This document shows positions 17,116 to 53,462 of a stretch of DNA of 64,000 nt, one piece after another. Position 1 is the first letter of the stretch; each line of letters begins with the position of its first letter. The position numbers and the translations under genes were made by a program. This stretch comes from Nemertoderma westbladi (taxonomy: Eukaryota > Animalia > Xenacoelomorpha), in the NCBI GenBank assembly GCA_032718475.1, contig JAUCBJ010004543.1:1-64000 (forward strand), in the 5' to 3' direction. The notes beneath the pieces were generated by a model. That model made no database searches, was not told where the DNA came from, and saw nothing but the letters and a program-made list of their open reading frames with translations.

Positions 17116-17146
<31 letters not shown>

Positions 17147-22024: not shown

Positions 22025-22632
22025 GATCCTAGAAAATGCGGTACCTCAGAGAAAATTAATAGCAATAAATCCATATCCTGGGAAAGCCCAATCTATTAGT
22101 CTAGTTGTATTAGTCTAGTAGTTTGCATTTCCTGTGATACTGAAGCGGCGGCCAAATTGCAGATTATTAATCAATAAAGATTTTACAGCGATGATATTAT
22201 TGAAGACCGACAACACCCGCTGGATAGGTTTAACTTTTTGATCTTTTTATCTTTATGACCTGGAGATTGGCAGCTGCTAACACAGGAATGTAAATCCAAC
22301 TAATAGTTGTGGTTTTCGATTCAGGACTCGTTGAACTATTTCCTCAGTGGATGAGGATGGTTGGTGAGGTCCCTCTGGTTCGTTTGCAATAATTTGGGGC
22401 ATCCCAGTATTATTCTACAGTCTATGGAATAGCGGCTGTATACCTGTATTGCTTTTCAATTAATGTCACAGCCCAATATTAGATCCGTGGATCCGCAGAC
22501 CAACTGAGCTCCGTTAATGCTTCTGTATTATATATCCGTTACACGATCCTTGGATTTTTCTGGGTTCTTCGTTTTGTAGGGGTACCTGTATTTCTTGGTT
22601 TTTATTGCATCTCAAAATCATTTTTCTTGCAG

Positions 22633-25600
22633 ATAGCGATGGTACTGAAGTGACAGAAAAGCGAAAGTACCAGCCAGATGATAAAGAGTTGAAAGAAATC
22701 TTGAAGCAATGCGACGTTGATGAATCTGAATTATTGGAGAAGTCGCAGCAGCCATGTAGCGATTTCCCGTCTGAGGTTTACGACGCTAAGCGGTTTATGG
22801 GGAGTGAATCGCGTTCATTATTCGAGGAATCCCGCAGCTCATCTGGTCACCCGGATGTGCCGCGTCTCGATGACATATCTGGGACATCGACTCCCATATT
22901 GGAGTTCTCCGTTCAAACTGTAAAGATAGGACAAGAAATAGTTGGTGAAGAGCAGAGGTTTTTTATAGTTTCTAGGGTAACAATTGACAGCGAAGGGCGT
23001 AGAGTGGTAGAAAAACGACGTTGTGTTGATAGTGACCCGGAATTACTAATATTAATTAACCAAGGTAAACTGGGAAAGGTATCATCTCCCAGTGGCAATC
23101 GAGTTTATTGTGAAGAGGAATACGTGGAAGTTTGCTCTGTGACTACTGACAGTGAGGGTCGTCGGCTAATTGATTCCCAGAGATTCGCTTGTGACGATCC
23201 CCAACTTGAGTCTGTACTGAATTCGAATGCGGAATTCCGTCGGCGTCTGCAGGAACTTCGGAGTGACGCTGAACATTCCCAGGATCTCCTCGATGTTGGC
23301 GACTTGGCCGTCAGTCCTGATGGTGATTCCGGATTTACTTCACCCAGAGCGCGATTATTCCCAGTGAAGCAGTTGGAAAGCCCCGACGGCATTCCTGCCT
23401 CAGAGTTAGATATTGTAAAGGTTTCCATACAGTTAATCACTTTATCTCAGGAAGATCCTTCAGAAGGTTGGATTGTTCATACTCGAATCCTTATCGATGA
23501 TTCTAGCAAGTTTATTGTTCGGAAGAAACGATATCGACCTAATGATCCTGAGCTGGTAAAACTATTAGAATCTTCTCAAAGCAAACTCTATCGAAATCTC
23601 ACAAAAGATGAACTAGTTGAAGTAACTATGTATTATAATGCTGCTAAGAATAAAGAGGCCATAGTTGATACGAAACTTTATAGATTTGATGATCCTGACC
23701 TTAAGACTATTATAGTAAATAATGATTTGCAACAACAACTCAAGGAATTAAGGGGTTATCTTGCCTCACAATCTGAAAAAGACATTGACATTGCCAACTT
23801 AGATGGCACCAGACAACCTTCAGCCCCAATTAGTTTCAGTGATGCGGAGATTACACGTGAGCAATCTCATGTAACATCAATTTCTGTAATGGATAGTGTC
23901 AGTGATTCCGGCGAAAAGGTTGTATGCGTTCAAAAAATTATTGAGTGCATATCAGGTGAGAAGAAGGTAGTTCGCGACGATTATCCACCGGATCATGAAG
24001 TGGTTCGTGAACTCGAATCAAAAGGAATGATACCCAATCATCGTCCGTCTGGCGTACTATTTGATACTGGACCTTTACGAGATGGTCTTCCTTTGTTGAA
24101 AGACCAGTGGGTGCAGCGTAATGATCTACAGGAAGATCAATATGGACTTCAAGTCCAATTTCAAACTGTAACTATTGAGGAAGAAATTACAGAAATAGGC
24201 GAGCAAACTGTTTATTTCCGAAGGCCTTCCACACCACCCCAATATTCTGATTGGGGAGGTGATGGACCACATGGCGCCAGTCCAGATGGAGGACACATAG
24301 TTGATGCAGAAGGAGATATTGAACCTAATGTGGAATTTCGGTCCAAATTTGTTACTGAAGAAAATATAAGTCATTACGAACAAGAGATTAATCTTTCTTC
24401 TCCTGACGATTCCCATAGAGTGGTGGAGGAGGAACTTCCGGCAGGAATTTCTATTTCAAAACATAAATTATCTGCCTCTCCCCTCAATGAAATTCATATA
24501 AAAAGTTTGAAACTCCCATCATTACCTCAAATTATATCACCTCTAAATTTGTCTAATGATATTGAAGATGCTGATACTTCAGTTGATGTGGAGGTTACAG
24601 TCCAAACCTTGAGAACTGATGACCAATTTGTATTGGATGCTGGTGAAGAAATTGATGATGATAATGTTGAGTACGAGATAGAGTTTACAATTCAGACAAT
24701 AAAATCTACAGGTGAACGAGTCATTTTTCCTGAAAAGCTTTGCACTTTAAAGAAAATAAAACCTAATCCTGATGGACGGTTGGACGAATATATTTACCAT
24801 ATGTCTCACACAAGTGAAGAATTGCAGAATTTGATAAGATCAAATAAATTGCCATATTATACTTCAGAATTGATTATTGAAGTGCAACAACCCTTTGAAG
24901 GCCCTACAAGTGTTCAAACTGGTCGAATATTTGAAAAAATCACACATGACATTAAAGCTGTACGAGAGCTTTTTAAACTTAATGACAACATTAATCTTTC
25001 TGCAGAGTATACTATCCAAAAACTGAGAATTTGTGAAGATCATACTGAGGTTTCTGGTCAGATTGTATCTGTAAAAGTGAAATCTGACTCTCAAACTTTT
25101 GTTGAAGATATTTTCACAACTGATCATTTTGTTGTTTCTAATCTTATTGAAATAGGTATGTTCTCTGGTGATATTGTCGCACAAGATACTCCACTAGAGC
25201 CCAATGTTCTAGAAATGCGTTCTATTCAAGGAGATTTGGAAATTATGTCATCTAAGTGTTCTGTTAAACTGGTAAAGCCGGAGGAAATTTCTAATTTTTT
25301 TACTAAATTAAATCGAGCCTGGTCTAAAGACAAAGCCCCTCCTATTCATGTACCAACTGAAATACGTATTGAATCTCTCCAAGTGGCTCCAAAATCACCA
25401 ATCGAATCAGAACTGGATGACAGTGTGGTTGATGAATCAATAGACTACGACATTGAAATTTCAGTACAAACTAAGAAATTCACACAATTTAAACAGGGGG
25501 AACCTATCAGAGATCAATCACCATTGGAAAGTAATATTCCAGAGGTTGTGGAGGTAGAGATAAAACATCATGTTCATGAAACATTTGAACAATACCATGT

Positions 25601-28600
25601 TGAAACTGATATTGATAATGCCGAACATGCGAATAAGATATACAAAGTAGATCATAGTTCTATTGAAAAAGCAGTTTATCCAGAAGTGGCTACAGATGGA
25701 GTTTTGAAGCCGGAACATTTTAAACAGCCAGCTTTTTCTACTATAGATATTCGATCAGTAAAAGTTCCTGCACAACAGGCCATTTTGTTAGAAAATCCTC
25801 CATCTGATGATGTATTTGAAGAGGATGACACTGAATATGAGCTGATAATTACAGTCATGACATTAAAGAAAGATGTACTATCAGGTGTTCCTTTACGTAA
25901 AGTGATTTTAAAATCAACTGATAAAGGTGTTTCAAAAGAGAAAGATGTTGATATTGATAACCATGAGTTGGATGACTTAGAAATGATAGGTAGCCTCCCA
26001 AAGAATATAAGTGAACTCATTCTACGGAAAGAAAATATATGGCCTCTTTATAATTCGTCCATGACAGAAAGAGTGTTTGGATGTGTTAGTCAAGAGTTTC
26101 AATCCGTCTGTCAACGTTTGCAATCATTAACTCCTGAAAAAGTTATTCCCGTGCGATATGAAACGTATTTGGGTGAATCGGAGCGCTATGATATTGAAGT
26201 TGTCAAATTTCCACATCTAGAATTAACTGGGGATATTGACATTCCTGATAAATTAGTAGTAACTAGAGCTGTTATCCTGGACAATGACAAAGTGCAAGTC
26301 TCTCAAAGACATTCGCCGCAATCTCCACTTGTTCAATCATTTCTATCAGAATCTGTTTTGCAAAAATTAGATTTTGAAGAGCCTATTAACTACACTAATG
26401 TTGTTGAAGTTACACATGTATCAGCAACTTCCGAAGACATTACTACTACAGTGAAGATTAAGCCTTTCAAATCAACTCGAGATTTAATTCAATTTTTTCA
26501 AAGTTATGACGAGTATGAGTATACATTTAGTGTTGTGGAAACAACTATGACTCAGTCTGATAATGTTTCTGTTTTGATTCCAAAAAGAAATGTTTCCATT
26601 CAACCAATTGATATTCGTTCTGTGAAACGACCTCTCACACCGGACGTAGTTCCCGATTTTGAAGATCATGAGGCTATCATTGTAGATGATGAAGATTATG
26701 AATGTGAAATCACTGTTCTTACAATTAGGAGTGACACGAAGCCTGTTGAACCTTTAGGGTCTATAACATTGAAGCAAAAACATCATCAGGCAACTAAAGA
26801 TATTTTACTTCAACCTTTTGGCGATGAAATTAAAGGATATGAAACTCAAGGTAAAATTCCAAAGTTTACATCTGAGCTTATGGTAGGTACTAAAAATGTG
26901 TGGCAAAGTACAAAGCCTGAAATTAGTGCAAGCAAAGTCTTCGAAAGCATTGTAAGGGAAATCCACACTGTCAAGGAACTTCAAAATAGTGGAAATGTTT
27001 CATGTCAATTACAATTGGCCGATGAGGAATGTTCCATCGATATATATCGTTTTCCACAATCCCTTCATGATGAGTTTAATGAAGAAAAGGTTATTGTGAT
27101 ATCGTTAAATACAATTGATGAAAAAGGCCAACAAGTTTTTTTGCGAGAGCGTTATGCACCAGAATCAGCTCCTATCCAGGATCTGGTTTCAGAAGGTATT
27201 ATTCCCCTTGATATACTCAATCCCCAACTGGCTGTTGCTAATGTTTTTGAAACTACACACATTTTAATTACCCCTGAAGTAATTGAAGCAAGTGTTTCAA
27301 TAAAATCTGCCAGCTCTGAGACCTCAGTATCTAAATTGAAAGAATTATGTCAGATGTCAATGCAAGGTTCTTGTTTTGAGGAGCATAGTATTGATGAGAC
27401 AATTGAACATAAATATGAAGAAGTAGAATATGATGAGAAGATTTCAAAAGCGGAAGTAGATCTATTATTACCATCTGAAGTGGAAATGGCATTAACAAAA
27501 CCAGTATTAATGAGCCCCACTAAAGTTATGCTAAGAAGTGTTCGCCGTGGAGATGTTAATATTGATAATTCAGCACCTCCTGATACAACAAACATTAGTG
27601 ATTATGATGACTATGATATGACAATAACTGTACATACTAAAAGGGTTGAAGATGATATTGAGGAAGAGCTTATATTAGTAACAAAGCATGAAAGGGACGA
27701 GTTTGGTGAGCTTGTTGAACATCAAGAAGAATTTAAATATGATGACAAAGAACATCAAGAAAATTATACAACTCAGTTATTGGTTGATGTTCATCATAAG
27801 GAACATGCAGAATTATTAAGACGTAAGAAAGTGTATGAATTGATAGTTATTGATATGCTTAAAAGTGTTGAACTAACAGCTGCATTGGAACCTCAGTTGT
27901 TTCCACCATTACAGGAAATGAAAGCACACATACCGTGCAATATTGATGTTAGTGTTGTGACACAAACATCAATTGATTTAAGTGAACCACCAAAACAATT
28001 ATTTATTTTGGATGCTGATTTGGGTGCAGGATTATCTGTGAGGCGTAAATACAATATTAGTTATATAGATGTCAAGTCCTTAGTAGCTGAGGGTGCTATT
28101 TCACAAGAATTATTGCAAATCATTCCCCCTGAACCTAGTACACTACAGACTACTACCATTTCTACAACCCATGATGTAATTACTTCAAGAATCACATTAA
28201 AGTCAGGTATTGATGCAACGGAATTGTTTAACAGTTTAGTTGATATCCCTGAAGAACGAATTACATTTAAACCTTTGCAAGGTGAACAGGAAGTATATAT
28301 GACCTGCGTTTCTTCTGGCACAAATACTTTGTTACTTCATGGTCCAGGTGAAGTTCAAACAGAACAACTAATTGTCGAGGGTTCATATCCTCTATTTGGG
28401 CAACATATAGTTTCGGACCAGGTTACTTCTTCGCGAGTTCCAGATATCAAAGGTCCTATTATACCAATATCATCTATAAAGCATGGTAAAGCAGATATGA
28501 AATCTGTTGTAGTTGATAATACATCTATGATTTCTCACCCACCATTATCTTTAGAGTCAACAACAGTCACAAAACAGGCGGCTATAGCATCAGATAATGC

Positions 28601-31600
28601 TATTGAATTATGTATTGAAAGGGGTATGCCACATTTTGAATCGATTTCTATCAATGCTTCAGAACCATTTATTTCCAAACCTACTGAGATCCAGGAACTT
28701 TCATCTTCTACTATGCGTGATGTCTCTTTTACCTCAAATTTACAAACGCCTGATGCCAGAGCATTCGCTCTTCCAGATGGTATTCCTATTGAAGAATCTC
28801 ATAGTATTCCAGAAGAAGCAACATTAGTTGATTCTTCTATTGAAACATTTGAACCTCGAGCTCTTCCTCCTATTGTTCCAGAAGAAGTTTCTTCTAGAGG
28901 AATTTCAAAGGTGGAGGCAGTTCCTATTGAAGGTGTTGAGATTCAAGCTGAACCTCATATTGCAACTGAATATGTTTCCCAAATATTACAACCTGTTACT
29001 GAAGAGAGAGGTATACCTGAACAAGCGAAGCTTAGGGGACAACCAGTTCCACAACAATTAGAAACATTTGATGTTGAGCATCTTCCACAGCAGGTCACAG
29101 AGATGGATACTACTTCTCCAACACATATATCATCTGTGTTTACTGAACCGATTTCACAACATGAAACTGTATTGGGAGCTCCTCTACCAGAGCATGTTGA
29201 TATTGACAGTACAACTCCATTATATGAGACACCAGTAGATTTGAATAAATCGCTTTATTCTGATATCCATGACACTACTGAAGAAGCACATCCTGTGAAA
29301 CCAGTTGTAGAAGGCATGGCAGAATCTGATATTGTACAACTTACAGAATCATCCATCATTCCCAAACAATTAATGAAGTATGAACAAACTGTTTCGGAAA
29401 AAGTATTACATGATGTTAAACAGCCACATGTGCAACAACATTTAATTTTAGGTGAATATGAACCAGAACAAGTTCCAGTAGAAGGATTAGAGCCATTACC
29501 TAAACACCAGGTTTTATCTGAAGAGGTTAGTTCGTCTAGGTTACCCAATATAAAGGAGCCAGTTAATCCATTGAAAGCTACTGAATATGGAAAAGGAGAG
29601 CCTAAATCTATTCCAGTTGCTCATGCAGCTGATATTCCTCAAGTGCCAATCTCTTTTGAGTCAACCACAGAGTCGAAACTACCTCCTGTAGAATCAGATA
29701 AATTTGTTGAAATATGCACTGAAAGGGGTCTTCCACATTCTGAATCGATTTATATAGATGCATCAGAACCATTTATTTCCAAACCTACTGAGGTCCAGGA
29801 ACTTCCATCTTCTATTATCCGTGATGACACTTTAACCTCATATTTACAAATGCCTGATGCGAGAGCATTAGCTCTTCCAGAAGGTATTCCTATTGAAGAA
29901 TCTACTAGTATTCCTGCAGAAGTAACATTAGTTGATTCTTCTATTGAAACATTTGAACCTCGAGCTCTTCCTCCTATTGTTCCAGAAGAAGTTTCTTCTC
30001 ATGGAATTTCGAAATTGGAAACAGTCCCTATTGAAGGTGTTGAGCCTCAAGCTGAACCTCATATTGCAACTGAATATGTTTCCAAAATGTTACAACCTGT
30101 TACTGAAGAGAGAGGTATACCTGAACAAGCAAAGCTTAGGGGACAACCAGTTCCACAACAATTAGAAACATTTGATGTTGAGCATCTTCCACAGCAGGTC
30201 ACAGAGATGGATACTACTTCTCCAACACATATATCATCTGTGTTTACTGAACCGATTTCACAACATGAAACTATATTGGGAACCCCTCTACCAGAACATG
30301 TGGATATTGAAGGGACAACTCCATTATATGAGACACCAGTAGATTTGAATAAATTACTTTATTCTGATATCCATGACACTACTGAAGAAGCACATCCCGT
30401 CAAACCAGTTGTAGAAGGCATGGCAGAATCTGTTATGGTACAACTTACAGAATCAACCATTATTCCCAAACAATCATTGAGTTATGAAGAAACTGTTTCT
30501 GAAAAAGTATTGCCTGATATCAAGCATCCTCAGTTGGAACAGCCATTAATTTACGGACAATATGAACTGGAACAAGTACCAGTAGAAGGGTCAGAGCCAT
30601 TACCTAAACATCAGGTTTTATCTGAAGAGGTTAGTTCGTCTAGGTTACCCAATATAAAGGAGCCAGTTACTCCATTGAAAGCTACTGAATATGGAAAAGG
30701 AGAGCCTAAATCTATTCCAGTTGCTCATGCAGCTGATATTCCTCAAGTGCCAATCTCTTTTGAGTCAACCACGGAGTCGAAACTACCTCCTGTAGAATCA
30801 GATAAATTTATTGAAATATGCACTGAAAGGGGTCTTCCACAGTCTGAATCAATTTCCATTGATGCAGCAGAACCATTTATTTCCAAACCTACTGAAATCC
30901 AGGAACTTTCATCTTCTACTATGCGTGATGTCACTTTATCCTCAAATTTACAAACGCCTGATGCGAGAGCATTAGCTCTTCCAGAAGGTATTCCTATTGA
31001 AGAATCTACTAGTATTCCTGCAGAAGTAACATTAGTTGATTCTTCTATTGAAACATTTGAACCTCGAGCTCTTCCTCCTATTGTTCCAGAAGAAGTTTCT
31101 TCTCATGGAATTTCGAAATTGGAAACAGTCCCTATTGAAGGTGTTGAGCCTCAAGCTGAACCTCATATTGCAACTGAATATGTTTCCCAAATATTACAAC
31201 CTGTTACTGAAGAGAGAGGTAGACCTGAACAAGCGAAGCTTAGGGGACAACCAGTTCCACAACAATTAGAAACATTTGATGTTGAGCATCTTCCACAGCA
31301 GGTCACAGAGATGGATACTACTTCTCCAACACATATATCATCTGTGTTTACTGAACCGATTTCACAACATGAAACTATATTGGGAACCCCTCTACCAAAA
31401 CATGTGGATATTGAAGGTACAACTCCATTATATGAGACACCAGTAGATTTGAATAAATTGCTTTATTCTGATATCCATGACACTACTGAAGAAGCACATC
31501 CCGTGAAACCTGTTATAGAAGGCATGGCAGAATCTGTTACGGTACAACTTACAGAATCAACCATCATTCCCAAACAATCATTGAGTTATGAAGAAACTGT

Positions 31601-34600
31601 TTCTGAAAAAGTATTACCTGATATCAAGCATCCTCAGTTGGAACAGCCATTAATTTACGGACAATATGAACCGGAACAAGTACCACTAGAAGGGTCAGAG
31701 CCATTACCTAAACATCAGGTTTTATCTGAAGAGGTTAGTTCGTCTAGGTTACCCAATATAAAGGAGCCAGTTACTCCATTGAAAGCTACTGAATATGGAA
31801 AAGGAGAGCCTAAATCTATTCCAGTTGCTCATGCAGCTGATATTCCTCAAGTGCCAATCTCTTTTGAGTCAACCACGGAGTCGAAACTACCTCCTGTAGA
31901 ATCAGATAAATTTATTGAAATATGCACTGAAAGGGGTCTTCCACAGTCTGAATCAATTTCCATTGATGCAGCAGAACCATTTATTTCCAAACCTACTGAA
32001 ATCCAGGAACTTTCATCTTCTACTATGCGTGATGTCACTTTATCCTCAAATTTACAAACGCCTGATGCGAGAGCATTAGCTCTTCCAGAAGGTATTCCTA
32101 TTGAAGAATCTACTAGTATTCCTGCAGAAGTAACATTAGTTGATTCTTCTATTGAAACATTTGAACCTCGAGCTCTTCCTCCTATTGTTCCAGAAGAAGT
32201 TTCTTCTCATGGAATTTCGAAATTGGAAACAGTCCCTATTGAAGGTGTTGAGCCTCAAGCTGAACCTCATATTGCAACTGAATATGTTTCCCAAATATTA
32301 CAACCTGTTACTGAAGAGAGAGGTAGACCTGAACAAGCGAAGCTTAGGGGACAACCAGTTCCACAACAATTAGAAACATTTGATGTTGAGCATCTTCCAC
32401 AGCAGGTCACAGAGATGGATACTACTTCTCCAACACATATATCATCTGTGTTTACTGAACCGATTTCACAACATGAAACTATATTGGGAACCCCTCTACC
32501 AAAACATGTGGATATTGAAGGTACAACTCCATTATATGAGACACCAGTAGATTTGAATAAATTGCTTTATTCTGATATCCATGACACTACTGAAGAAGCA
32601 CATCCCGTGAAACCTGTTATAGAAGGCATGGCAGAATCTGTTACGGTACAACTTACAGAATCAACCATCATTCCCAAACAATCATTGAGTTATGAAGAAA
32701 CTGTTTCTGAAAAAGTATTACCTGATATCAAGCATCCTCAGTTGGAACAGCCATTAATTTACGGACAATATGAACCGGAACAAGTACCACTAGAAGGGTC
32801 AGAGCCATTACCTAAACATCAGGTTTTATCTGAAGAGGTTAGTTCGTCTAGGTTACCCAATATAAAGGAGCCAGTTACTCCATTGAAAGCTACTGAATAT
32901 GGAAAAGGAGAGCCTAAATCTATTCCAGTTGCTCATGCAGCTGATATTCCTCAAGTGCCAATCTCTTTTGAGTCAACCACAGAGTCGAAACTACCTCCTG
33001 TAGAATCAGATAAATTTATTGAAATATGCACTGAAAGGGGTCTTCCACAGTCTGAATCAATTTCCATCGATGCAGCAGAACCATTTATTTCCAAACCTAC
33101 TGAAATCCAGGAACTTTCATCTTCTACTATGCGTGATGTCACTTTATCCTCAAATTTACAAATGCCTGATGCGAGAGCATTAGCTCTTCCAGAAGGTATT
33201 CCTATTGAAGAATCTACTAGTATTCCTGCAGAAGTAACATTAGTTGATTCTTCTATTGAAACATTTGAACCTCGAGCTCTTCCTCCTATTGTTCCAGAAG
33301 AAGTTTCTTCTCATGGAATTTCGAAATTGGAAACAGTCCCTATTGAAGGTGTTGAGCCTCAAGCTGAACCTCATATTGCAACTGAATATGTTTCCAAAAT
33401 GTTACAACCTGTTACTGAAGAGAGAGGTATACCTGAACAAGCAAAGCTTAGGGGACAACCAGTTCCACAACAATTAGAAACATTTGATGTTGAGCATCTT
33501 CCACAGCAGGTCACAGAGATGGATACTACTTCTCCAACACATATATCATCTGTGTTTACTGAACCGATTTCACAACATGAAACTATATTGGGAACCCCTC
33601 TACCAGAACATGTGGATATTGAAGGGACAACTCCATTATATGAGACACCAGTAGATTTGAATAAATTACTTTATTCTGATATCCATGACACTACTGAAGA
33701 AGCACATCCCGTCAAACCAGTTGTAGAAGGCATGGCAGAATCTGTTATGGTACAACTTACAGAATCAACCATTATTCCCAAACAATCATTGAGTTATGAA
33801 GAAACTGTTTCTGAAAAAGTATTGCCTGATATCAAGCATCCTCAGTTGGAACAGCCATTAATTTTAGGAAAATATGAACCAGAACAAGTACCAGTAGAAG
33901 GATCAGAGCCATTACCTAAACATCAGGTTTTATCTGAAGAGGTTAGTTCGTCTAGGTTACCCAATATAAAGGAGCCAGTTACTCCATTGAAAGCTACTGA
34001 ATATGGAAAAGGAGAGCCTAAATCTATTCCAGTTGCTCATGCAGCTGATATTCCTCAAGTGCCAATCTCTTTTGAGTCAACCACGGAGTCGAAACTACCT
34101 CCTGTAGAATCAGATAAATTTATTGAAATATGCACTGAAAGGGGTCTTCCACAGTCTGAATCAATTTCCATTGATGCAGCAGAACCATTTATTTCCAAAC
34201 CTTCTGAAATCCAGGAACTTTCATCTTCTACTATGCGTGATGTCACTTTATCCTCAAATTTACAAACGCCTGATGCGAGAGCATTAGCTCTTCCAGAAGG
34301 TATTCCTATTGAAGAATCTACTAGTATTCCTGCAGAAGTAACATTAGTTGATTCTTCTATTGAAACATTTGAACCTCGAGCTCTTCCTCCTATTGTTCCA
34401 GAAGAAGTTTCTTCTCATGGAATTTCGAAATTGGAAACAGTCCCTATTGAAGGTGTTGAGCCTCAAGCTGAACCTCATATTGCAACTGAATATGTTTCCA
34501 AAATGTTACAACCTGTTACTGAAGAGAGAGGTATACCTGAACAAGCAAAGCTTAGGGGACAACCAGTTCCACAACAATTAGAAACATTTGATGTTGAGCA

Positions 34601-40600: not shown

Positions 40601-43600
40601 GCCAGTTACTCCATTGAAAGCTACTGAATATGGAAAAGGAGAGTCTAAATCTATTCCAGTTGCTCATGCAGCTGATATTCCTCAAGTGCCAATTTATTTT
40701 GAGTCAACAACAGAGTCAAAACTACCCCCTGTAGAATCAGATAAATTTGTTGAAATATGCACTGAAAGGGGTCTTCCACATTCTGAATCGATTTCTATTG
40801 ATGCATCAGAACCATTTATTTCCAAACCTACTGAAATCCAGGAACTTTCATCTTCTACTATGCTTGATATCACTTTATCCTCAAATTTACAAACGCCTGA
40901 TGCTAGAGCATTTGGTCTTCCAGATGGTATTCCTATTGAAGAATCTACTAGTATTCCTAAAGAAGCAACATTAATTGATTCTTCTATTGAAACATTTGAA
41001 CCTCGAGCTCTTCCTCCTATTGTTCCAGAAGAAGTTTCTTCAAGAGGAATTTCAAAGGTGGAGGCAGTTCCTCTTGAAGGTGTTGAGCCTCAAGCTGAAC
41101 CTCATATTGCAACTGAATATGTTTCCAAAATGTTACAACCTGTTACTGAAGAGAGAGGTATACCTGAACAAGCGAAGCTTAGGGGACAACCAGTTCCACA
41201 ACAATTAGAAACATTTGATGTTGAGCATCTTCCAAAGCAGGTCACAGAGATGGATACCACTTCTCCGACACATATATCATCTGTGTTTACTGAACCGATT
41301 TCACAACATGAAACTATATTGGGAACCCCTCTACCAGAACATGTGAATATTGAAGGGACAACTCCATTATATGAGACACCAGTAGATTTGAATAAATTGC
41401 TTTATTCTGATATCCATGACACTACTGAAGAAGCACATCCCGTGAAACCAGTTGTAGAAGGCATGGCAGAATCTGTTACGGTACAACTTACAGAATCAAC
41501 CATTATTCCCAAACAATCATTGAGTTATGAAGAAACTGTTTCTGAAAAAGTATTGCCTGATATCAAGCATCCTCAGTTGGAACAGCCATTAGTTTTAGGA
41601 CAATATGAACCAGAACAAGTTCCAGTAGAAGGATCAGAGCCATTACCTAAACACCAGGTTTTATCTGAAGAGGTTAGTTCGTCTAGGTTACCCGATATAA
41701 AGGAGCCAGTTACTCCATTGAAAGCTACTGAATATGGAAAAGGAGAGCCTAAATCTATTCCAGTGGCTCATGCAGCTGATATTCCTCAAGTGCCAATCTA
41801 TTTTGAGTCAACCACAGAGTCGAAACTACCTCCTGTAGAATCAGATAAATTTGTTGAAATATGCACTGAAAGGGGTCTTCCACATTCTGAATCGATTTCT
41901 ATTGATGCTTCAGAACCATTTGTTTCCAAACCTACTGAGGTCCAGGAACTTTCATCTTCTACTATGCGTGATGTCACTTTATCCTCAAATTTACAAACGC
42001 CTGATGCCAGAGCATTCGCTCTTCCAGATGGTATTCCTATTGAAGAATCTACTAGTATTCCTAAAGAAGTAACATTAGTTGATTCTTCTATTGAAACATT
42101 TGAACCTCAAGCGTTATCTCCTATTGTTCCAGAAGAAGTTTCTTCTAGAGGAATTTCAAAGGTTGTTGCAGTTCCTATTGAAGATGTGGAGATTCAAATG
42201 AAGCCATATATTGCAACTGAATATGTTTCGATGAAGTCAATGCCACTCGCTGAAGAAAGAAGTTTACTTAGTAATAAGTCTGAACAATGGGGAAGATCTG
42301 CTCCACACCATTTAGAAACGTTTGATGTACAACATCTTTCACAAGATGTATTAGAAATGGATGCCACTTCCCCAACTCAGATAGTTTCAGTATGTTCTAA
42401 ACCCTCCACACAACTTGAAGTCGTTTTGGGAGCTCCTCTTCCAGAAACCATTGTTATTGAAGGAACTACACCATTTAATGAAATGCCAGTTGATTTGAAT
42501 AAATTGCTTTATTATAATATCCATGACACTACTGAAGAGGCACAGCTTGCCAAACCAATAGTGGAAGGCATTGCAGAATCTGATATGGTACAACTTACAG
42601 AATCATCCATCATTCCCAAACAATTAATGAAGTATGAACAAACTGTTTCGGAAAAAGTATTACATGATGTTAAACAGCCACATGTGCAACAACATTTAAT
42701 TTTAGGTGAATATGAACTAGAACAAGTTCCAGTAGAAGGATTAGAGCCATTACCTAAATACCAGGTTTTATCTGAAGAGGTTAGTTCGTCTAGGTTACCT
42801 GATATAAAGGAGCCAGTTACTCCATTGAAAGCTACTGAATTTGGAAAAGGAGAGCCTAAATCTATTCCAGTTGCTCATGCAGCTGATATTCCTCAAGTAC
42901 CAATATCTTTTGAGTTAACCACAGAGTCAAAACTACCCCCTGTAGAATCAGATAAATTTGTTGAAATATGCACTGAAAGGGGTCTTCCACATTCTGAATC
43001 GATTTCTATTGATGCATTAGAACCATTTATTTCCAAACCTACTGAAATCCAGGAACTTTCATCTTCTACTATGCGTGATATCACTTTATCCTCAAATTTA
43101 CAAACGCCTGATGCCAGAGCATTTGGTCTTCCAGATGGTATTCCTATTGAAGAATCTACTAGTATTCCTAAAGAAGTAACATTAGTTGATTCTTCCATTG
43201 AAACATTTGAACCTCGAGCTCTTCCTCCTATTGTTCCAGAAGAAGTTTCTTCTAGAGGAATTTCAAAGGTGGAGGCAGTTCCTCTTGAAGGTGTTGAGCC
43301 TCAAGCTGAACCTCATAGTGCAACTGAATATGTTTCCAAAATGTTACAACCTGTTACTGAAGAGAGAGGTATACCTGAACAAGCGAAGCTTAGGGGACAA
43401 CCAGTTCCACAACAATTAGAAACATTTGATGTTGAGCATCTTCCAAAGCAAGTCACAGAGATGGATACCACTTCTCCGACACATATATCATCTGTGTTTA
43501 CTGAACCGATTTCACAACATGAAACTGTATTGGGAACCCCTCTACCAGAACATGTGAATATTGAAGGGACAACTCCATTATATGAGACACCAGTAGATTT

Positions 43601-46600
43601 GAATAAATTGCTTTATTCTGATATCCATGACACTACTGAAGAAGCACATCCCGTGAAACCAGTTATAGAAGGCATGGCAGAATCTGTTACGGTACAACTT
43701 ACAGAATCAACCATTATTCCCAAACAATCATTGAGTTATGAAGAAACTGTTTCTGAAAAAGTATTGCCTGATATCAAGCATCCTCAGTTGGAACAGCCAT
43801 TAATTTTAGGACAATATGAATCAGAACAAGTACCAGTAGAAGGATCAGAGCCATTACCTAAACATCAGGTTTTATCTGAAGAGGTTAGTTCGTCTAGGTT
43901 ACCAGATATAAGGGAGCCAGTTACTCCATTGAAAGCTACTGAATATGGAAAAGGAGAGCCTAAATCTATTCCAGTTGCTCATGCAGCTGATATTCCTCAA
44001 GTGCCAATATCTTTTGAGTCAACCATAGAGTCAAAACTACCACCTGTAAAATCAGATAAATTTGTTGAAATATGCACTGAAAGGGGTCTTCCACATTCTG
44101 AATCGATTTCTATTGATGCTTCAGAACCATTTATTTCCAAACCTACTGAGATCCAGGAACTTTCATCTTCTACTATGCGTGATATCTCTTTCACCTCTAA
44201 TTTACAAACGCCTGATGCCAGAGCATTCGCTCTTCCAGATGGTATTCCTATTGAAGAATCTACTAGTATTCCTAAAGAAGTAACATTAGTTGATTCTTCT
44301 ATTGAAACATTTGAACCTCAAGCGTTTCCTCCTATTGTTCCAAATGAAGTTTCTTCTAGAGGAATATCAAAGATGGAGGCAGTTCCTATTGAAGATGTGG
44401 AGATTCAAATGAAGCCATATATTGCAACTGAATATGTTTCAATGACGTCAATGCCATTCGCTGAAGAAAGAAGTTTACTTAGTAATAAGTCTGAACAATG
44501 GGGAAGACCTGTTCCACACAATTTAGACTCTTTTGATGTACAACATCTTTCACAAGAGGTAATAGAAATGGATGCCACTTCCCCAACTCAGATAGTTTCA
44601 GTATGTTCTAAACCTTCCGCACAACTTGAAGTCGTTTTGGGAGCTCCTCTTCCAGAAACTATTGTTATTGAAGGAACTACACCATTTAATGAAATGCCAG
44701 TAGATTTGAATAAATTGCTTTATTTCGATATCAATGACACTACTGAAGAAGCACATCATGTGAAACCAGTTGTAGAAGGCATGGCAGAATCTGTTATGGT
44801 ACAACTTACAGAATCAACCATCATTCCCAAACAATCACTGAGTTATGAAGAAACTGTTTCGGAAAAAGTGTTGCCTGATATCAAGCATCCTCAGTTGGAA
44901 CAGCCATTAATTTTAGGACAATATGAACCAGAACAAGTTCCAGTAGAAGGATCAGAGCCATTACCTAAACATCAGGTTTTATCTGAAGAGGTTAGTTCAT
45001 CTAAGTTACCTGATATAAAAGAGCCAGTTACTCCATTGAAAGCAACAGAATATGGTCAGGCATATGCTGAAAGTATTCCAGTTGATGGATCGGAACCACT
45101 TGATTCACATTTCAAGGTTGATGAGCTTTCACCAACACCGGTTCATAGTGTTAGTGAAGCTATTGCTATTTGTGAAACAAAATTTCCTTCCATGGGTAAA
45201 CCAAAAATGGACATTGTCTTTGTAGAGGGTGTTGAACCTCATATACAGCCACATGTTGCACAAGAATATGCTTCTCAGCTATCTGAAATTCTTACTAAGC
45301 AACAAATTGGTCCAACAAAGCCAGAGCTTAGAGGTCACCCCGTTCCTGATAAGTTAGCAACTGTCAATTCAAAGCATCTTCCTCATCAGGTTATTGAGAT
45401 TAATACAATTTCCCCCGAAATGATTTCTTCTATACTTTCAGAACCAACTGCTCATCATGAAGTAGTTATGGGAGTGCCTCATTTGGAGCACATTAAAATA
45501 GAAGACGTTCTACCACTTGTTGATGCACCTGTAGATTTAAATAACTTGTTATACACTTCAGTCTTTGATACCAAAAATACTGCAACATCTAGTAAACCAC
45601 ATATTGATAGTCTGGCAGAAGTCATTAATATTCATCTGAATGAAACTGAAACTTTGCCAGTAACTACAATTCCATTATCTGAAATTTCAAGTGAAAGAGT
45701 TTCTAGTGATTCCCGGGAAGCTAAAGTGGATTATCCAATATTTATGGGTGCACCCAAGAGAGATAATCTTGAATTAGAAACATTGCCTAGATTATCCAAA
45801 CCTAATTTTAAAGTTGAGAGAATTACTCAATTTGGATGCCCTGATTTGGCAGAGTCTGCATTGCAGCAGCAACCTACAGGGAGAGGACTTCCAGCATCTG
45901 AAAATATTATAATTGAGAAACCATTAGGGATCACTGACTTGCCTATTGAAAGCAATTTTTCCTTTAAGTCAAATATTCCAGTTTTTGAACCAGCACCATT
46001 GCAGATAGCAGAGCCAATGGAATTGCACATTCTTCAACAAAGTGGCAGTGAGAGTGTGCATATTTCTAGTTTGGTCAATGAATCAAATTTCTACTCTGAT
46101 GTTTCATACACAAAAAGCGAAGATGTTTTCAGGGAAGAAGCCATGGATAAAGATGTGGAATCTTTTATAAAGCAGAAAGGAACATCTTTCAAGGTGTCAA
46201 AGAATATCATTCTTTGTGAGGAAATTCCCAGCTTGTTGACAGTAAATAATGAACGTTCTCATGTACGTTCTATAGATGTTAAGGCAATCAGGTCTTCCAC
46301 ATTGGAAGAGCAGTTGAGTAATTCAGATATTAATTGTATAGAAGTTGCTGCTTATTCTCCTCCATTACCATTGCCACTTACAATTAAACAAGTTAAACAA
46401 GGAGCAGGGCAGTTTCTAACAACTTATGAACACTCAGATTATCATTCTAAATTTTCTTCTTTGGTCACAGATATTCAAGAATCCATTGAATGTCATAAAA
46501 TTCGTCATGTAATTCCCACTTTGGAAGCTCTTCCTTTTGATTCAATTCCAGAAGTCCAATCAACTCCTCAATTCAGGTTGCAAGATTCTTCGATTTTTGG

Positions 46601-49600
46601 TACACAGTTTGTTGTGACATCACAGATCACGGTCACTGGAAATAGTCAACCTATAATTCAGGAAAAGTACTACCCAGTACAACCTGAAGGTCTCCAATAT
46701 GTGATGGACAATATGGAAATACCGGAAGTATGGCTACCAAGTGAGGTTCGATTAACACCAATGACGCAACTGCACCCAGAAACACCCTCTCTTTCTAAGA
46801 TCTCCGAACATCCGAATGTATCTGAAATAAAACTGCACCAGTTGTCTTCAGATTCAAATGAAAAGTATTTAATTTTAACTAAGAAAAGTATTTCCACTGC
46901 CGGGGAAGAAATTATAGAAAGACGCCGATACAATACATTTTTACCTGTGGACATGCATCGTTTGAAACAAGGAGCTGTACCAGAAGCCTCAGAACCAGAT
47001 ATAATTGAAAAAGAATTAAGTGATATTTGTAATTATACCCTCGGTGGTGTTTCAATTGGTGACATTGATATGGAACCTTCTTTTCATATTCGTGCATCAA
47101 AAGATGAAAGTGAGTATATAATCTCGAGTGCGCAGGTACCAACACAATTGGGAGCATTTGTGGAAGAAATATATTACCAATCTACTGCAGAAAATTGGGT
47201 ATCTATACATAATGAAGGACATTTACCTTCTCAAGCTGAGCCTGTTCGAGTAAATGTTTTTCCTATTGAGAATATTTCCACACCTTATTATCATCCTTCA
47301 AGCTATACATGTAATTCTATTAATATTAGTGATTATATTGTTGATATTGATGAACTCAACAAAACCTTATTAGTTCAAAGATCAACTGTTACACATGATG
47401 ATGCAAAGGTCACAGAATTGATTCAGTTCATTGACTGTTCTACGAATTCAATGGAAAATGCTGTGGAAGGAAGACTTCCAGACAGCGATTCAGCCTCACA
47501 CTATAGTCGGTATGTGGATTCTGTTGAGTTGGAGTCTCAATATCTCTCAACAATTAGGCCACCTTCTAATGGTGTGCCTGTTTATCAAACAGAGGGTAAT
47601 AATATATGGTCGAGTATCGAAGAAGTTGTTCTTGATTCCAGAGTCAGTTATCTCAAAACGTCCTTTCAAATGGACACAGAAACACTAAAGGAGTTCTTTG
47701 CGACTTCAGTTATTCCATCCACAGCCCGGGTAATCAACAGTCATGAGACAGCAACATTTGATGAATTTACCGCAGCACCAATAGTGTCATTTGATGCATC
47801 GACATCGGTAATGACCGTTACTTCTTCATTGACAATGGCGGCTCTTCCTGTAATAGAAACAAAAACGTATAAATTAAACGAGGAGACAATTCATTCACTT
47901 ACTGCTGGTGAGGACATTCAGGAACTACCAGTAAGTGTAAAGCGGTCTGTTTCTCAACGTCTTCCAGTATTTAAAACACAAAAATTACATGTGTCAATGC
48001 CTTATCTCATTCAACCGAGATATTTTGTGCATCAAAATTCTGACGATCCTGACAACTTGATTAATATTACTTATCAATCTATTGAAAATGATAGACAACT
48101 CATTGAGACGAATGTATATGAAATTTCTCATGAGGTTGATGAAGCAATTTCAAAGAGACTTATACCACCTGATAGTGTGCAACCAAGGATTTATAAGATG
48201 ACATCATTGCCTTTACTTCCTATTAACGAGATACCACTTCATTATTATGGTGATGATACCATCAATATTAAAGAAAATCCAGAGTTAACATATATTTCTG
48301 ATAATTATTCGCAAGAAAAATTTGTTGTCATTACAAAAACTGTTATTGATAATATTGGGTCAGATGTCATTGAGAAGAGGGTATACAGATGTAACAATCC
48401 ACACTCCGTGGATTATGTCAGGCAAGGAATAATCCCCCCAACTGCTGAATTGTGTTATACCGACACCGTTCCTTTGCTAACGACTACTGTGCTGCCAGTA
48501 GTAGGTGGAACTTCTGAACAATTAGAAACGAGTTTGGTCAAAATAGAGGAATCCCTTGAGACCTATGTGATTACTAAGCGTTTAATTCAAGCTTCAAATT
48601 CGGAGACTTACAGAGAGACAGCACGTTTCCGAGTTGAGAATCCTGTTCAGCTTCGATTTCTTCAAAATGGGGAATTCCCGCAGGACCTAAGACCTATAGA
48701 GATGATACGCATCCCTGTTTCATCCATTTTAGATTCCATTTTATGCTCGAGTGAAAATTTTTCAGCATCTATAATTCAATATAATAAGGTCGATTGTGTT
48801 CAGATAATAACTAACTCTGTGATCAATAGCCGTCACGTCACAGAATTCAGAACATATGAAAATACGCCTGAAGTACAAGATGCAGTTAAATCAGTTTCTT
48901 TTCCTTTAAAGGCTGTACCATTAGAGAGCAAAGTGATATCAACAATGTTGCCATCAGACGATTTGAACGAAGACATTGTTGCTAATCCAGAAGTAACCGT
49001 TGTCTTGAGAGGTTCATCGGAGTGTTTTACAGTTTTGACAACTACTCTTATTATTAATAAAGAGCAGCAAGTTCTTAAACGGCAGAAATACCGCTTGCCA
49101 GCTCCTGAAACCGAAAATATTATTCGCACTGGAGAAGTTCCATCGGGGTTTGACCCCATTGAAATCAGTCAGCACGTATTTGCACCAGTTGAGGTCGAAT
49201 CCAAGAAACAACCAATTTCTACTGTTTATCTTTATGATACCAATGACACGTATGTTCTTGACGCCCAACCTGATGTTTCTGATCAATCAAAAATATTTTT
49301 TACAACTTATCGTGTGGACACTTTACAACAAAAGTTGGAGTTATCTAAGGGAACTATACCATCCAATGCCGTTCCTATTGAATCTTCTTTGTCTGTACAC
49401 GGAACATATTCTTCGGGTTTGAGAATTTGGCCTAAACGCCCCTCCAATTTCACACCAATTATACCCAATATATCGATTGATGAAATGCAAGAACAGCAGT
49501 ACGTAGTCGTTTCCCAAACATGGCCATCCCCTAAGGGCGAGTATATGGAGAGTATTTATTACAAACCAAATCAACACCTAGATCCTGAGATAGAAGACAT

Positions 49601-52600
49601 AGATCATCTTCAAATTGACGACTTACCAGTTGTTGCTGTTAAACACCACAATTTGGTACCTTTATCTCAATCACAAAGTCTAGTTTATATGGGAGAAGAG
49701 ATGTCAGTTACTCTAGTTGCCAATGTTGAGAATAAAGAACAATTCTTTGTAAGCTCAAGAAATGTAAATTATGAAAATGCATCTGCCCTAGAAAAGCAAA
49801 GATGGTTGGCGGATTCATCTCTTGTTGATATTATCAATTCAAGTGGGTGTATACCTGAATCATTCAGGCCTGTTGAGATAACATTATACCCTGTTGTAGA
49901 GTCATCAGTGAGCCAGGATGATGAGGAAATGTTAAACCATGCACCATTGCTAATGGAAACTATACAGGATGGTACTGGTTGTAAGTTTATAAAGACATTG
50001 AAATATTTGGTTTTGGAGGATGGGAAAGAAGTTTCTGAGGAATGTAAATATGAATTTAGTAACGAGTTGTTAAATACGTTAACTTCATTAAATTATTGTG
50101 ATACGTTACCCTTGGAGACACGAAGAACAATTCGTCAGTGTCTCTTTTTCTCCCAGCCTATAAGCCTAGCTGATGTTGGTGAGATTGATGATGGTACCAC
50201 AGATATTCACATTGAAAATATTCCTGAAACTAATGAATCTTACATCACCTTAACAAAAACTATGGTTACCGAAGAGCAACTGCAGTTTATAAAGAAAAGA
50301 AGATTTAGTATTCCAACTAATGCGGAATCTCCTATTCAACAAAAGGGCGATTCCATAGCGAAACCGATATCCAGTTATCCTGTTAATAGAGCATTTGAGG
50401 TCGAAGATAATGTTGATGATAATCAGGTGGTAGTTACAAAGATGACATTATCAGGTGATGGTGTAGAAATGGTCAACGTTGATGTTTATGATGCCACTCC
50501 GGAGTATAAAGTTTATAAAGATGTCGATGAACTTCATATGCCAGTTTATTCCGCATTGATCCCACTACAACCTTTAGCACCAATCTCCAGTTTAAAGTTT
50601 ATGGAACTTGAGTCTGGGCAACTAGAAATTCCTGAAATGAAGTGGGGTGAAATTGATTCAGATTCTGATGAGAAATTTTTAGTGATAACTAGAACTGCAT
50701 CAGATGATAACTACGTGACTAGAGTACGATATAAAGCAGATATGAGCGATATCGACGAGATACGACAATGTGGCTACCTACCAGACAGGATGAGTCCTGT
50801 TGAGATTAGAAAGGATTTTATGGAAGATGTAACAAAGGTAAAGTTCGATACTCCCATTTACATGAAAGATGTTGATGAATATATTCCTGAGGTTGATGTA
50901 TATAAGGTGCGTGACACATCAGAAACCTTTGTCATTTTGAATCGTACTTGCATTGATGAGGAAGGTCAGGAAATTGTAGAGCACCGTAGATACAGGCTCA
51001 GGCATAATGAACTTAATAAACCTCTAAAGGAGGTACTTGATGATATGCAACCTGTGGAAATTTCCCGAATTGTTAATGATAAATTTCAGGAAGAAGGTGA
51101 CGATAGTGACGATAGTACAGATATTGTTATATTAGATACTGATAATGTAGCAATGAAAAAGGTAGTATCCACTGTTATGGTTGCAAACGTAAATGAAGTA
51201 AATCTTGTCCGCCAGAAATACATTTTACCTTCAAACATAGCTCAAGTAATATCAAAGGCAAATAAAATACCTGACCATTATGAACCCAACGAGGTTGAGG
51301 TTATTAGTGTCAACCCTGTTGGACAAATTGGAGAAATCTGTCCGTTTAAAGTTTCCAGTACTGAGGAAGCTATTCCGGAACTCGGATTGGCTGTTTTCAG
51401 CCAATCAGACGAGATGTTCCTTATTGTAACATCAACATTCCCAGACAGCCACCGACTCCGCAGACGGCGTTTCCGGTTACAGGCGCCGGATCTGGAGGTT
51501 GTTAAGCAAGAAGGTCGAATTCCCGCGGGAATACACCCTGTGGAAACTCAGCGCTTAACTCTGGATGAAGCGACTACTTTGCGATTCTCTCCAGCGGTAC
51601 TGCGTCAGTTCGACTGGGAAGGTTGCAACGTCTTCCAACAGCGATGCACTGCCACCGGGGAAAATTTTATTCTTGTATCCAGATGCGAAGAATATGATGA
51701 TATGGGGAAACCGGTTGAAGAACGCGTTCGGTACAGAGTTGGCGATGAAGAAGTTGAGGAAATTGTTCGAGGATTTGTTCCGAGACTATTTGAAGCAGCT
51801 GAGATATACAGGACTGTAAAGGCGGATATTGAGTCTATAAAGGTTGTAGCTGGTGAGGATAACCTTCCTGACATGGAGGATATAACACATGTGGATATTC
51901 CTGGCAGCCATGATAAGTTTGTTATTCATACAGTGACCTGCATCTCGGAGCAGGGAACCATGGTACTAGAGAAACGGCAGTACCGGTTGCCTAGGGTTGA
52001 GGTGGATGAAATCGAACGAAAGAGGCAGGTTCCGAGAGGACTCCACCCAGAAAGTGTCAGTAGGAGTCCGACAATCTCGGTGCCCAGATTCGCCTCGCCC
52101 GTGGAGATCGCCCCGGGCATCCGAGGTTATCCGGACTTACGAACAGTGACTACTGGCGCTCCCGAATCCTCCCACGGAAGTTTCCTTGTTTTTTCGCAGC
52201 CGGATGCGGACGAGGATGTAATTGTGCGCGTTCGGACTCCGATCCAACGCGCCCAACTGGAGACCATCACATCCACTTGTCAACTCCCCGATGAGATGCC
52301 ATTGGTAGAAATTCGCAACCTCTGCGTCGCTGACTCGCTTATAGTCCCTTGTGTTCCGCCGTTCCAAGATGAAATCCCCGTAGAAGTGCGAATCCAATCT
52401 GTAGCCAATTCTCCTGAGAGATTTATATTGGTTACTAAGTCGGTAGTTGATACCCAAGGTAGTAAGGTGATAACGAGGATGCGTTACCGAGCCAATCCGC
52501 GAGAGCTGAACAACTTAGTGACTGATCAGCGGCTACCTGACCGCGAACCTGACGAAATGATATTTATTCGACCCCAGGGAGAAGCCATTTCCCTTCCCTA

Positions 52601-52987
52601 CGAAGAGGTTTGCGCCTACAAATACGAGACTGATGACGTCACTGGAAATGAGAGCCTCGTTGTGACTCTCAAATTGGTGGACGATGACGGCAACGTGTTC
52701 GTCGAACACAAACGCTGGAGTGTGACGTCACCTGAGGCGTTGCAGTCTGCGAGTCGGGGTCGGTTTCCCCAGGGGGATCCGCAAGTTATCGACCGTGTCC
52801 CCATGGATCTCTACCACGACTCAGATATTTTCCCGGTAGACCCAACCATCATTGCCTCTCCCTTTTCCTACGAGGAATTCCCCGACAAGGACGACGTCTA
52901 TCTCCTCGTAAAGAGACTCATATGTGGCGATCCTGACGCCAAGGATATGTTGGAGACCCTCACCTATAAAGATGATTCTAGTGTGAG
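22633..52987 (+). CDS. Giant 30,355-bp exon (about 10,118 aa; acidic, Glu/Pro/Ser/Val-rich, repeat-based) (phase 1->2)
   Basis: Uninterrupted ORF 22605-52991. The acceptor ttttcttgcag| continues TRTVK-DSDGTEVTEKRKY from the previous exon. The donor is ag|gtgagt, and its TGA is the apparent ORF stop. Confidence 0.9.
28347..44915 (+). repeat. Coding tandem array: 15 units of 1104 bp (368 aa), three of them 1107 bp; diverged sub-repeats continue to about 46020
   Basis: Unit starts at 28347, 29451, 30555 and so on to 44916 (15 x 1104 + 3 x 3). The shadow ORFs in the track recur at 1104-bp spacing. Confidence 0.95.
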
Positions 52988-53301
52988 GTGAGTTTATGTA
53001 ATGTAATTCAGTTCCACTTTCTAATTGGCTACATCATTAGTGTTGTTTTTCTGTTACTTTACTATTTAGACTAATTGATTTCCAACTCTGGGAACAGCAA
53101 TAAAACGATTCGTATTTCCCTCCAAAAAAGTTGATGGGAAGGTGGTGTTGTGTGGGTGGGGCCGGTGCACGGGCAGCTGACACGCTGCCCGTGGGTTCCA
53201 GGGGGAATTTCAAATTTTTCATAAATTTTTTTATTGTGTTTAACCTGAAAGCCTATTATTACTAATTACCCATACTGAACTACCGACTTTATCGCCCATA
53301 G

Positions 53302-53462
53302 AGATTCCTTGAGTTCTGGGACGCTACCGTTGGATCTACCGTTCCGTATTCTTCGTCAACCGGTTCAGCAACTACTCTACCTCCAACCGGTTACCGCCGC
53401 TGAGCTAACCAAGCCTGTGGATGAACTACCGGACGCTGAATGGGAAGAAACTGATGAGACAG
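53302..53462 (+). CDS. Exon (phase 2->1)
   Basis: cccatag| acceptor; DSLSSGTLPLDLP..EWEETDET; ag|gtaagg donor. Confidence 0.8.

Follow-up and report, generated by a model that had tools for sequence, protein, structure and literature searches.

Gene model and open reading frame

The window analysed here is a stretch of 64,000 nucleotides (nt) from Nemertoderma westbladi (contig JAUCBJ010004543.1 of assembly GCA_032718475.1, positions 1 to 64,000, forward strand). It carries part of a gene that likely belongs to the plakin family, and within this gene lies a predicted giant exon at 22633-52987. In the open reading frame (ORF) listing of the window, a stop-to-stop frame of 10,157 codons runs on the plus strand from 22518 to 52991. 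Its part between acceptor 22633 and donor 52987 is free of stops over 30,355 nt, i.e., 10,118 codons, and is thus the single unbroken frame between phase-compatible splice sites that a preliminary description of this DNA had claimed. Across these bases, each of the five remaining frames contains 327-1204 stops. Chance does not account for the frame, considering 4,594 codons outside the tandem array described below and about 0.06 stops per codon in the flanking introns.

The frame is preceded directly by AG at 22633 and followed directly by GT at 52987. It enters in phase 1 and leaves in phase 2, the upstream donor 20952 is of phase 1 and the downstream acceptor 53302 of phase 2, and both joints are therefore in frame. 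The giant exon could not be left out by itself without a shift of the frame and is therefore not a simple cassette. Frame and splice signals at 22633-52987 are confirmed, and from the sequence we infer that the mRNA retains this region as one exon.

The exon was placed in a 19-exon model (1785..64000), assembled by eye from three-frame translations. All introns are GT-AG, and the product of 11,604 amino acids (aa; about 1.29 MDa) has 0 stops, a frame still open at the window end and no hydrophobic segment (maximum 19-residue hydropathy 1.3). This agrees with the earlier figure of over 11,600 aa. The features, all on the plus strand, are as follows.

1785..11315, plus strand: eight small exons (1785-1911, 2249-2432, 2794-2937, 3087-3276, 3404-3542, 4129-4325, 9331-9716, 11200-11315), coding 494 aa that probably form the C-terminal half of a plakin domain, as judged from the in-frame model, a sub-threshold PF18373 match (2249-2431) and a likeness to plakin repeats SR5-SR9
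14103..16163, plus strand: five small exons, Ser/Thr/Pro-rich linker, aa 495-703, start of the insert; Pro, Glu, Ser and Thr (PEST) residues 50%
17344..20952, plus strand: two exons (17344-17836, 20435-20952) with early copies of a ~55-aa module running across the joints
22633..52987, plus strand: giant predicted exon, 30,355 nt, 10,118 codons, ~1.13 MDa, isoelectric point (pI) ~4.5
22633..28475, plus strand: part 1 of the giant exon, 1,947 aa, with 5 ~55-aa modules (by profile) and 4-5 diverged ~190-aa modules
28338-28475, plus strand: one further old 46-aa repeat before the array
28476..45044, plus strand: tandem array of 15 units of 1,104/1,107 bp (368/369 aa), each of eight gapless 46-aa repeats, 120 repeats in all
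29523..29531, plus strand: donor-like site, phase 0, at the equivalent place in 15/15 units (first copy; the last ends 44990 +6)
45045..46013, plus strand: older degenerate copy of the unit, 28% identity
46599..52987, plus strand: part 3 of the giant exon, 15 ~55-aa modules (by profile) at a spacing of ~85 aa, predicted beta-beta-alpha-beta
53302..64000, plus strand: three further exons (53302-53462, 57739-58181, 63269-end) with more ~55-aa modules, frame open at the window end

The preliminary description had covered neither the 46-aa base repeat, nor the folded module, nor the donor-like site in each unit.

Splicing of the giant exon

The 5' joint 20952/22633 is well supported, as one ~55-aa module is completed only by this splice. 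Scored with a module profile built without the joint-spanning copies, the spliced product reaches 46.4 bits, versus 27.2 for downstream sequence only, 10.1 for upstream sequence only and 9.7 for read-through. Among 158 AG sites the joint comes 5th, and the remaining five of the top six match whole downstream copies and take in no upstream residues. Acceptor 22633 scores 11.7 (median 10.5) and donor 52987 is strong at 11.4.

Base composition was followed as the G+C content at third codon positions (GC3), which is 0.49 in the first and 0.63 in the last 300 nt of the giant exon. Inside, it amounts to 0.20 and 0.27 at 4.5-7 kb and to 0.12-0.25 in the array, with no inner peak. The inward fall from the ends is significant outside the array (rho -0.14, p 8e-19), and the observed/expected ratio of CpG falls inward in the same way, giving U-shaped profiles. 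GC3 is 0.40 or more in 15/18 other exons, and codon use gives 0.18-0.32 for the giant exon versus 0.55-0.58 for small exons of the same gene. A drop from both ends without an inner peak fits one old exon with a long-standing edge effect.

Several observations weigh against a single exon that is always spliced whole. The splice matrix was trained on the 18-19 sites of the model itself. Acceptor 53302 has the lowest score of 19 (-4.6), and the joint 52987/53302 reaches 1.1 bits, without support from the repeat profile. The GC3 argument is drawn from the exons of this one gene. Further, the donor-like site found in 15/15 units scores 11.6 versus 11.4 for the real donor, and an acceptor-like site of compatible phase (phase 0, score 10.7) lies at 52200, so that internal splicing is possible.

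These sites form the basis of an unlikely alternative, in which the frame is translated, but unit donors and inner acceptors cut it into length variants in most mRNAs, as in exitrons. Of the 1,474 inner GT sites, only 17 score at least as high as the median donor, and 15 of these 17 are the same phase-0 unit site; phase-0 acceptors for it would be the acceptor-like sites at 52200 and 50157 and exon 63269, and phase-1 acceptor-like sites at 29452, 40495, 42706 and 48733 suit donor 20952. However, shuffling the codons of a unit creates a comparable donor in 15.5% of cases, and the unit donor may thus be a chance site copied 15 times along with the unit. The best acceptors within the array are out of phase with it, and GC3 does not rise at any inner site. 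In addition, all parts of the frame stay open, which implies that every part is coding in some transcript.

The tandem array

The middle part (28476-45044) of the giant exon, retained whole in our preferred model, is built from 46-aa repeats. The array is nested (46 to 92 to 184 to 368 aa, followed by 15 units), and the autocorrelation of a single unit has maxima at 46, 92, 138 and 184 aa (z 8.1-12.2, versus 2.4-3.2 for the ten shuffle maxima listed). A position matrix finds 125 repeats, i.e., 120 in the array, 1 before and 4 after it, with a maximum of 3.1 in the reversed control. The units U1-U15 differ by 0-203 nt, and U3=U4 and U5=U7 are identical. U2-U10 are homogenised and U1 is diverged, while the diverged type U11, U13 and U15 alternates with U12 and U14 at the 3' edge, before the older copy of 28% identity. 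Such a pattern would be expected of unequal crossing-over.

Selection keeps the array repeats coding. There are 119 synonymous versus 220 replacement changes among the units (pN/pS 0.56, p 7e-7, the units not being independent), and the pairwise mean dN/dS is 0.45. No stop occurs in the 312 variable unit columns; if changes were uniform and 5% of random ones gave a stop, the chance of this would be ~1e-7. Insertions and deletions (indels) between units are whole codons.

The array is acidic (pI 4.5, net charge -0.11), with 11% Pro, 43% PEST residues and 4% aromatic residues. AlphaFold2 run on a two-repeat alignment (92 aa, 23 rows) gives a predicted local distance difference test (pLDDT) score of 63, a predicted template modelling (pTM) score of 0.13 and no secondary structure, and the 46-aa repeats are predicted to be unfolded. 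Pfam matches of the array to IglE_N (E 6e-9) and Ldl_recept_b had 0 passing stretches and were gone on single units, and were rejected as summing artefacts.

The prediction of an unfolded spring is weakened by a FoldIndex of 0.017, which is near zero and leaves disorder not clear-cut, by an Ile/Val/Leu content of 24% and by the shallow AlphaFold2 alignment (23 rows from four repeat-pair types). Moreover, the exact length of 46 aa, the Gly and the hydrophobic columns are kept at 9-33% identity, beyond what a plain spring needs. A possible but rather doubtful alternative is that the exon is real while its array is a multivalent binding track, which would fold upon a periodic partner such as a filament, or a small hub protein that contributes beta strands, instead of acting as a passive spring. 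This would explain the gapless register over 120 copies although the eight repeat types of a unit share only 4-15 of 46 residues pairwise, and the purifying selection. In 35 distinct repeats, Gly occupies 91% of column 4, and Ile/Leu/Val/Met/Phe make up 91-100% of columns 11, 13 and 19. Giant ankyrin-B is a precedent, as it binds microtubules via disordered repeats of its giant exon (PMC7401806). However, the ankyrin-B repeats are basic and the array is strongly acidic, and no binding partner is indicated. Motifs of the type [ST]x[IL]P occur 5, 2 and 4 times in three units versus ~1 expected (p 0.009, 0.26 and 0.016), but SxIP motifs need positive flanks (10.1101/122010). The flanks in the array are acidic, and we rejected these motifs as likely EB-binding sites.

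Assembly of the array

The preliminary description had named an assembly expansion of the array as a concern. Judged by variant letters and depth in runs X1 and X2, two DNA studies compared with the window over 43938-54030, the array is unlikely to be an expansion. Single contigs cover 44969-53262 in X1 and 44981-54006 in X2 (depth 56 and 47). Array contigs lie at 15-18 times the depth of the unique part, and the first bin of the last unit at 15.8 times in both X1 and X2; summed contig depth is no copy number, and this is a rough check only. Of the array variant letters listed for the X1/X2 contigs, 22/23 are present in assembled units, and three letters found in 2/15 units sit on an X1 contig at 2.1 times depth. 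Among the variants between individuals listed for the unique part, 16 substitutions comprise 6 synonymous, 10 replacement and 0 stop changes, the sole exon indel is of 6 nt, and frame-shifting indels are all intronic. From run X5 (kind uncertain) came only two contigs, one of 218 nt at 51466-51683 and one of 236 nt in the array, and from X6 none; both runs are uninformative.

Some caution is warranted, as one of the two studies is possibly the source of the assembly, and 58 substitutions and 2 indels stand beyond those listed. The identical unit pairs, with a longest exact repeat of 2,175 bp, mean that the unit count is possibly off by one or two. An assembly artefact is unlikely, and we hold it to be highly improbable that the length stems from an expansion of a shorter array. 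The identical units and the exact repeats of 2,175 and 1,294 bp would fit such an expansion, but 13/15 units differ, the depth and variant letters of two studies agree with the array, and 13.8 kb of open frame would still be left if the array were removed.

The ~55-residue module and a third module

The second repeat family links the giant exon to its neighbours. Starting from two motif matches, an iterated profile recovers 26 copies of a ~55-aa module, and a looser profile 29, the lowest at 34 bits (its members were in the training set) versus at most 5.0 in reversed and shuffled controls. Twenty copies begin within the giant exon (5 ahead of the array, 15 behind it and 0 inside it) and 9 in the flanking exons, from 16118 to 63523, with 0 in the plakin-like part. 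More degenerate extra copies are visible by eye. The copies in flanking exons imply that the insert comprises several exons and continues past the window end.

AlphaFold2 on 24 module copies predicts a strand-strand-helix-strand order (strands 6-15 and 21-30, helix 35-40, strand 49-57) with pLDDT 89 and pTM 0.66. No Pfam family fits the 24 copies (best E 0.044, in 1/24), and neither the ~55-aa nor the 46-aa family matches a Pfam family. The two are unrelated by profile comparison (probability 0.2). In Pfam scans of 22635-37001, 39516-40622, 43800-52988 and the 24 module copies, the Plectin family is absent, and no Ig or Fn3 family is above threshold in these parts. This bears out the earlier view that the content is lineage-specific. 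Since no plectin repeats were found in the scanned parts, the insert is not filed as a plakin-repeat region.

Plectin repeats have 38 aa and consist of a hairpin plus two helices (10.1101/122010). The predicted module has a hairpin, a helix and a following Gly in common with them, but its strands are longer and a third strand is added. The hairpin-helix-Gly pattern of the model may reflect remote descent of the module from plectin repeats. With the module model, Foldseek gave no match at E<=0.001 and VIA-align none at Z>=5, which does not show a new fold; the best VIA-align hits, a designed binder and cystatin-like folds, reached at most Z 4.4 with a root-mean-square deviation of 4.2-4.7 over 49-50 residues. 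A PDB search with the module profile returned only TEAD hairpin matches (E>=0.027), which were rejected. Word-based homolog searches with the module alignment (lengths 112-2000) and the C-terminal part of the giant exon (lengths 859-2734) gave nothing, which is weak evidence, and the ESM Atlas had no usable match for 50640-52985, which shows neither absence nor novelty.

A third module of ~190 aa occurs in 4-5 diverged copies in part 1 of the exon and consists of an acidic stretch followed by a Y-E-I-x-I-T-V-x-T-like strand. Pairwise z is 4-18 among most copies and 0.8-2.4 for three pairs.

Identity of the gene

The assignment of the gene to the plakin family is likely, based on the exons upstream of the insert. 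Exon 2249-2432 (61 aa) matches Pfam Spectrin_2 (PF18373), which we take to be a plakin-specific family, at E 3.6e-4 and 21 bits. The match covers profile positions 22-75 of 78, and the absent profile start would fall in the preceding exon. The first eight exons (494 aa) are helical-looking with 2% Pro, and the order of their helical segments presumably corresponds to plakin repeats SR5-SR9. Two points detract from the assignment: the score is under the Pfam cut-off of 26.4, and no plakin-family Pfam match was found in the other seven upstream exons, scanned one exon at a time. PDB sequence searches of upstream exons (starts 1786, 2249, 2796, 3089, 3405, 4129, 9332) found no plakin. A word-based homolog search with exon 9320-9700 (lengths 224-2000) returned nothing, again weak evidence, and no usable ESM Atlas match exists for 9332-9715, which likewise shows neither absence nor novelty.

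The upstream exons could instead be spectrin-like in a gene that is not a spectraplakin, i.e., a plakin ending in the insert like VAB-10A, or a different giant with spectrin repeats, for instance of the nesprin or SESTD1/zormin type, and the reading as an internal counterpart would then fail. We regard this as very unlikely, as the presumed plakin specificity of PF18373 and the presumed helical order of SR5-SR9 oppose it, together with the three further in-frame exons that carry the ~55-aa module downstream. What speaks for it is that the plakin-type match is single and sub-threshold, that the frame stops 4 bases past donor 52987, and that the plakin-domain isoform of worm vab-10 ends in its own repeat exons (PMC2199363).

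Given the plakin assignment, exon 11200-11315 is the last helical one and the insert starts with the next exon, directly after the plakin domain, where the preliminary description had placed it. That description had also regarded the giant exon as the positional counterpart of the plakin-repeat region. The position stands, while the counterpart is not the giant exon alone but a multi-exon insert with a common module, from ~14103 to beyond 64000. The insert begins in phase 0. The window ends inside it; the positions of the N-terminal CH domain and of the SH3 domain within the plakin domain would fall upstream of the window, and those of the spectrin rod, EF-hands and GAS2 domain beyond its end.

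Comparison with known systems

What the internal repeat region of spectraplakins does is poorly understood (10.1101/122010). In Shot, the internal plakin-repeat exon of 10,497 nt targets the protein to adherens junctions and lengthens it, and the isoform Shot-PH has 8,846 aa (PMC2173965). The giant exon is three times as long (30,355 versus 10,497 nt), in line with the earlier claim of a size far above Shot. As in Shot, MACF1b (PMC4914211) and dystonin (10.1101/122010), a very large predicted exon lies directly after the likely plakin domain, in keeping with a giant isoform, and contains small repeats with spacers that are predicted to be beta-hairpin-based. In contrast to these, there are no plectin repeats by Pfam, the module is predicted to be beta-beta-alpha-beta and not a hairpin plus two helices, half of the giant exon is a young homogenised tandem array, and the insert extends over at least 11 exons with a giant exon that is not skippable alone.

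Other cytoskeletal proteins have been lengthened in comparable ways. C. elegans ANC-1 is a linker extended by near-identical coding macro-repeats, and its copy number matters for function, as several of its six 903-aa repeats are needed (PMC8139857). However, ANC-1 is a nesprin with helical repeats, while the plakin-like gene here has 15 non-helical 368-aa units of nested 46-aa repeats. Giant ankyrin exons of vertebrates and flies, which arose independently more than once, likewise provide a cytoskeletal scaffold with largely unstructured sequence and short repeats (PMC7401806, PMC12798937). They belong to another family, the ankyrin-G exon is 7.8 kb, and ankyrin-B repeats are of 12 aa and basic, unlike the acidic 46-aa repeats here.

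In size class, tandem coding repeats and richness in Pro, Glu, Ser and Thr, the giant exon resembles the largest titin exon and the variable-number tandem repeat exons of mucins. The largest titin exon is 17,106 bp (PMC12198301), MUC16 exon 3 is >21 kb (PMC3467050) and a MUC4 allele is 27,843 bp (PMC3467050, PMC13345508). MUC12 protein reaches up to 23,080 aa, and its alleles are described as the largest human exon (PMC13345508, a preprint). The exon had been called unusually long, which holds against the Shot, titin and MUC16 exons but not against human mucin alleles such as MUC12, and a record exon was rejected on this ground. The term titin-scale was also generous, with 1.29 MDa in the window versus 38,138 aa for all titin exons (PMC12198301). 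Unlike mucins, Ser and Thr make up only 18% and Asp and Glu 17%, and the 11,604 aa include no hydrophobic segment, the protein being intracellular by context. Unlike titin, there are no Ig or Fn3 domains by Pfam in the scanned parts, and Pro, Glu, Val and Lys (PEVK) residues amount to 38%. Literature searches on spectraplakin giant exons and related subjects, with most subscription papers outside the search, found no such insert.

Introns and other features

The introns contain tandem arrays and mobile-element remains; the presence of introns, the retroelements and a loss of CpG along the gene body are signs of animal DNA. Two arrays, one at 1891-2148 (27 bp x 9.7) and one at 4317-7206 (37 bp x 78), begin at the end of an exon, and every unit includes a copy of its 5' splice site (donor 1911 and donor 4325, respectively), so that many decoy donors closely follow the real ones downstream. 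The same 36-bp satellite is found in two introns 44 kb apart (14255-14906 and 58423-62188) with a shared flank of 92% over 687 bp, which suggests that it is carried by a mobile element. Broken non-LTR (long terminal repeat) retroelement reverse-transcriptase pieces lie in introns at 18043-19560 and 56398-57200 (Pfam RVT_1 E 9e-25 and 4e-4), and a 163-bp tail is common to 21861-22022 and 57127-57288. A broken ORF at 9922-10891, presumably GIY-YIG/Penelope-like, has 92-bp inverted copies at 9961-10052 and 10800-10891 and no Pfam match. An intronic open frame of 235 codons at 7982-8689 matches no Pfam family and is outside the gene model. A 22-bp satellite at 54109-55812 (77 copies) produces spurious long ORFs in three frames and is preceded by a high-copy dispersed element at ~53900-54030. 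Finally, a T-rich low-complexity stretch of ~300 bp (16890-17200) lies upstream of exon 17344.

Proposed role

Our preferred reading, to which we give about an even chance, is that 22633-52987 is a genuine single exon of 30.4 kb, at the core of an insert of several exons that follows a likely plakin domain, and that its array is a long extensible tether between clusters of docking modules. The plakin end would anchor the protein at a junction, and the two clusters of predicted-folded ~55-aa modules would dock on partners, analogous to the internal repeats of Shot. The modules might thereby bind proteins in place of plectin repeats, which do so at this position in Shot, MACF1b and dystonin. Between them, the predicted-unfolded acidic array (~125 46-aa repeats) could serve as the tether. 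Its 5,523 aa correspond to a contour length of ~2 micrometres and, by a scaling law, to a coil of ~56 nm. The reach of such a linker would be set by the number of units and could be altered through unequal crossing-over.

A more far-reaching proposal, which we put forward tentatively and at somewhat less than even chance, is an animal spectraplakin whose plectin-repeat region has been replaced by two undescribed repeat families, a ~55-aa beta-beta-alpha-beta docking domain in 29 or more copies and a 46-aa repeat raised by nested doubling to ~125. One 30.4-kb internal exon would be spliced whole despite a strong decoy donor in each unit, and the product, with over 1.3 MDa before the rod, would be the largest cytolinker known to us, its reach tuned by copy number or donor choice.

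The giant exon would offer a natural case for how a non-mucin internal exon of 30 kb is defined in the presence of 15 decoy donors, and the U-shaped GC3 and CpG profile is a candidate sign of exon ends in DNA alone. The ~55-aa module adds a small, confidently predicted domain outside the Pfam families. For the spectraplakins, a slot that is kept while its content is swapped and its length tripled would suggest that length and multivalent docking, and not the plectin fold, are what this slot provides.

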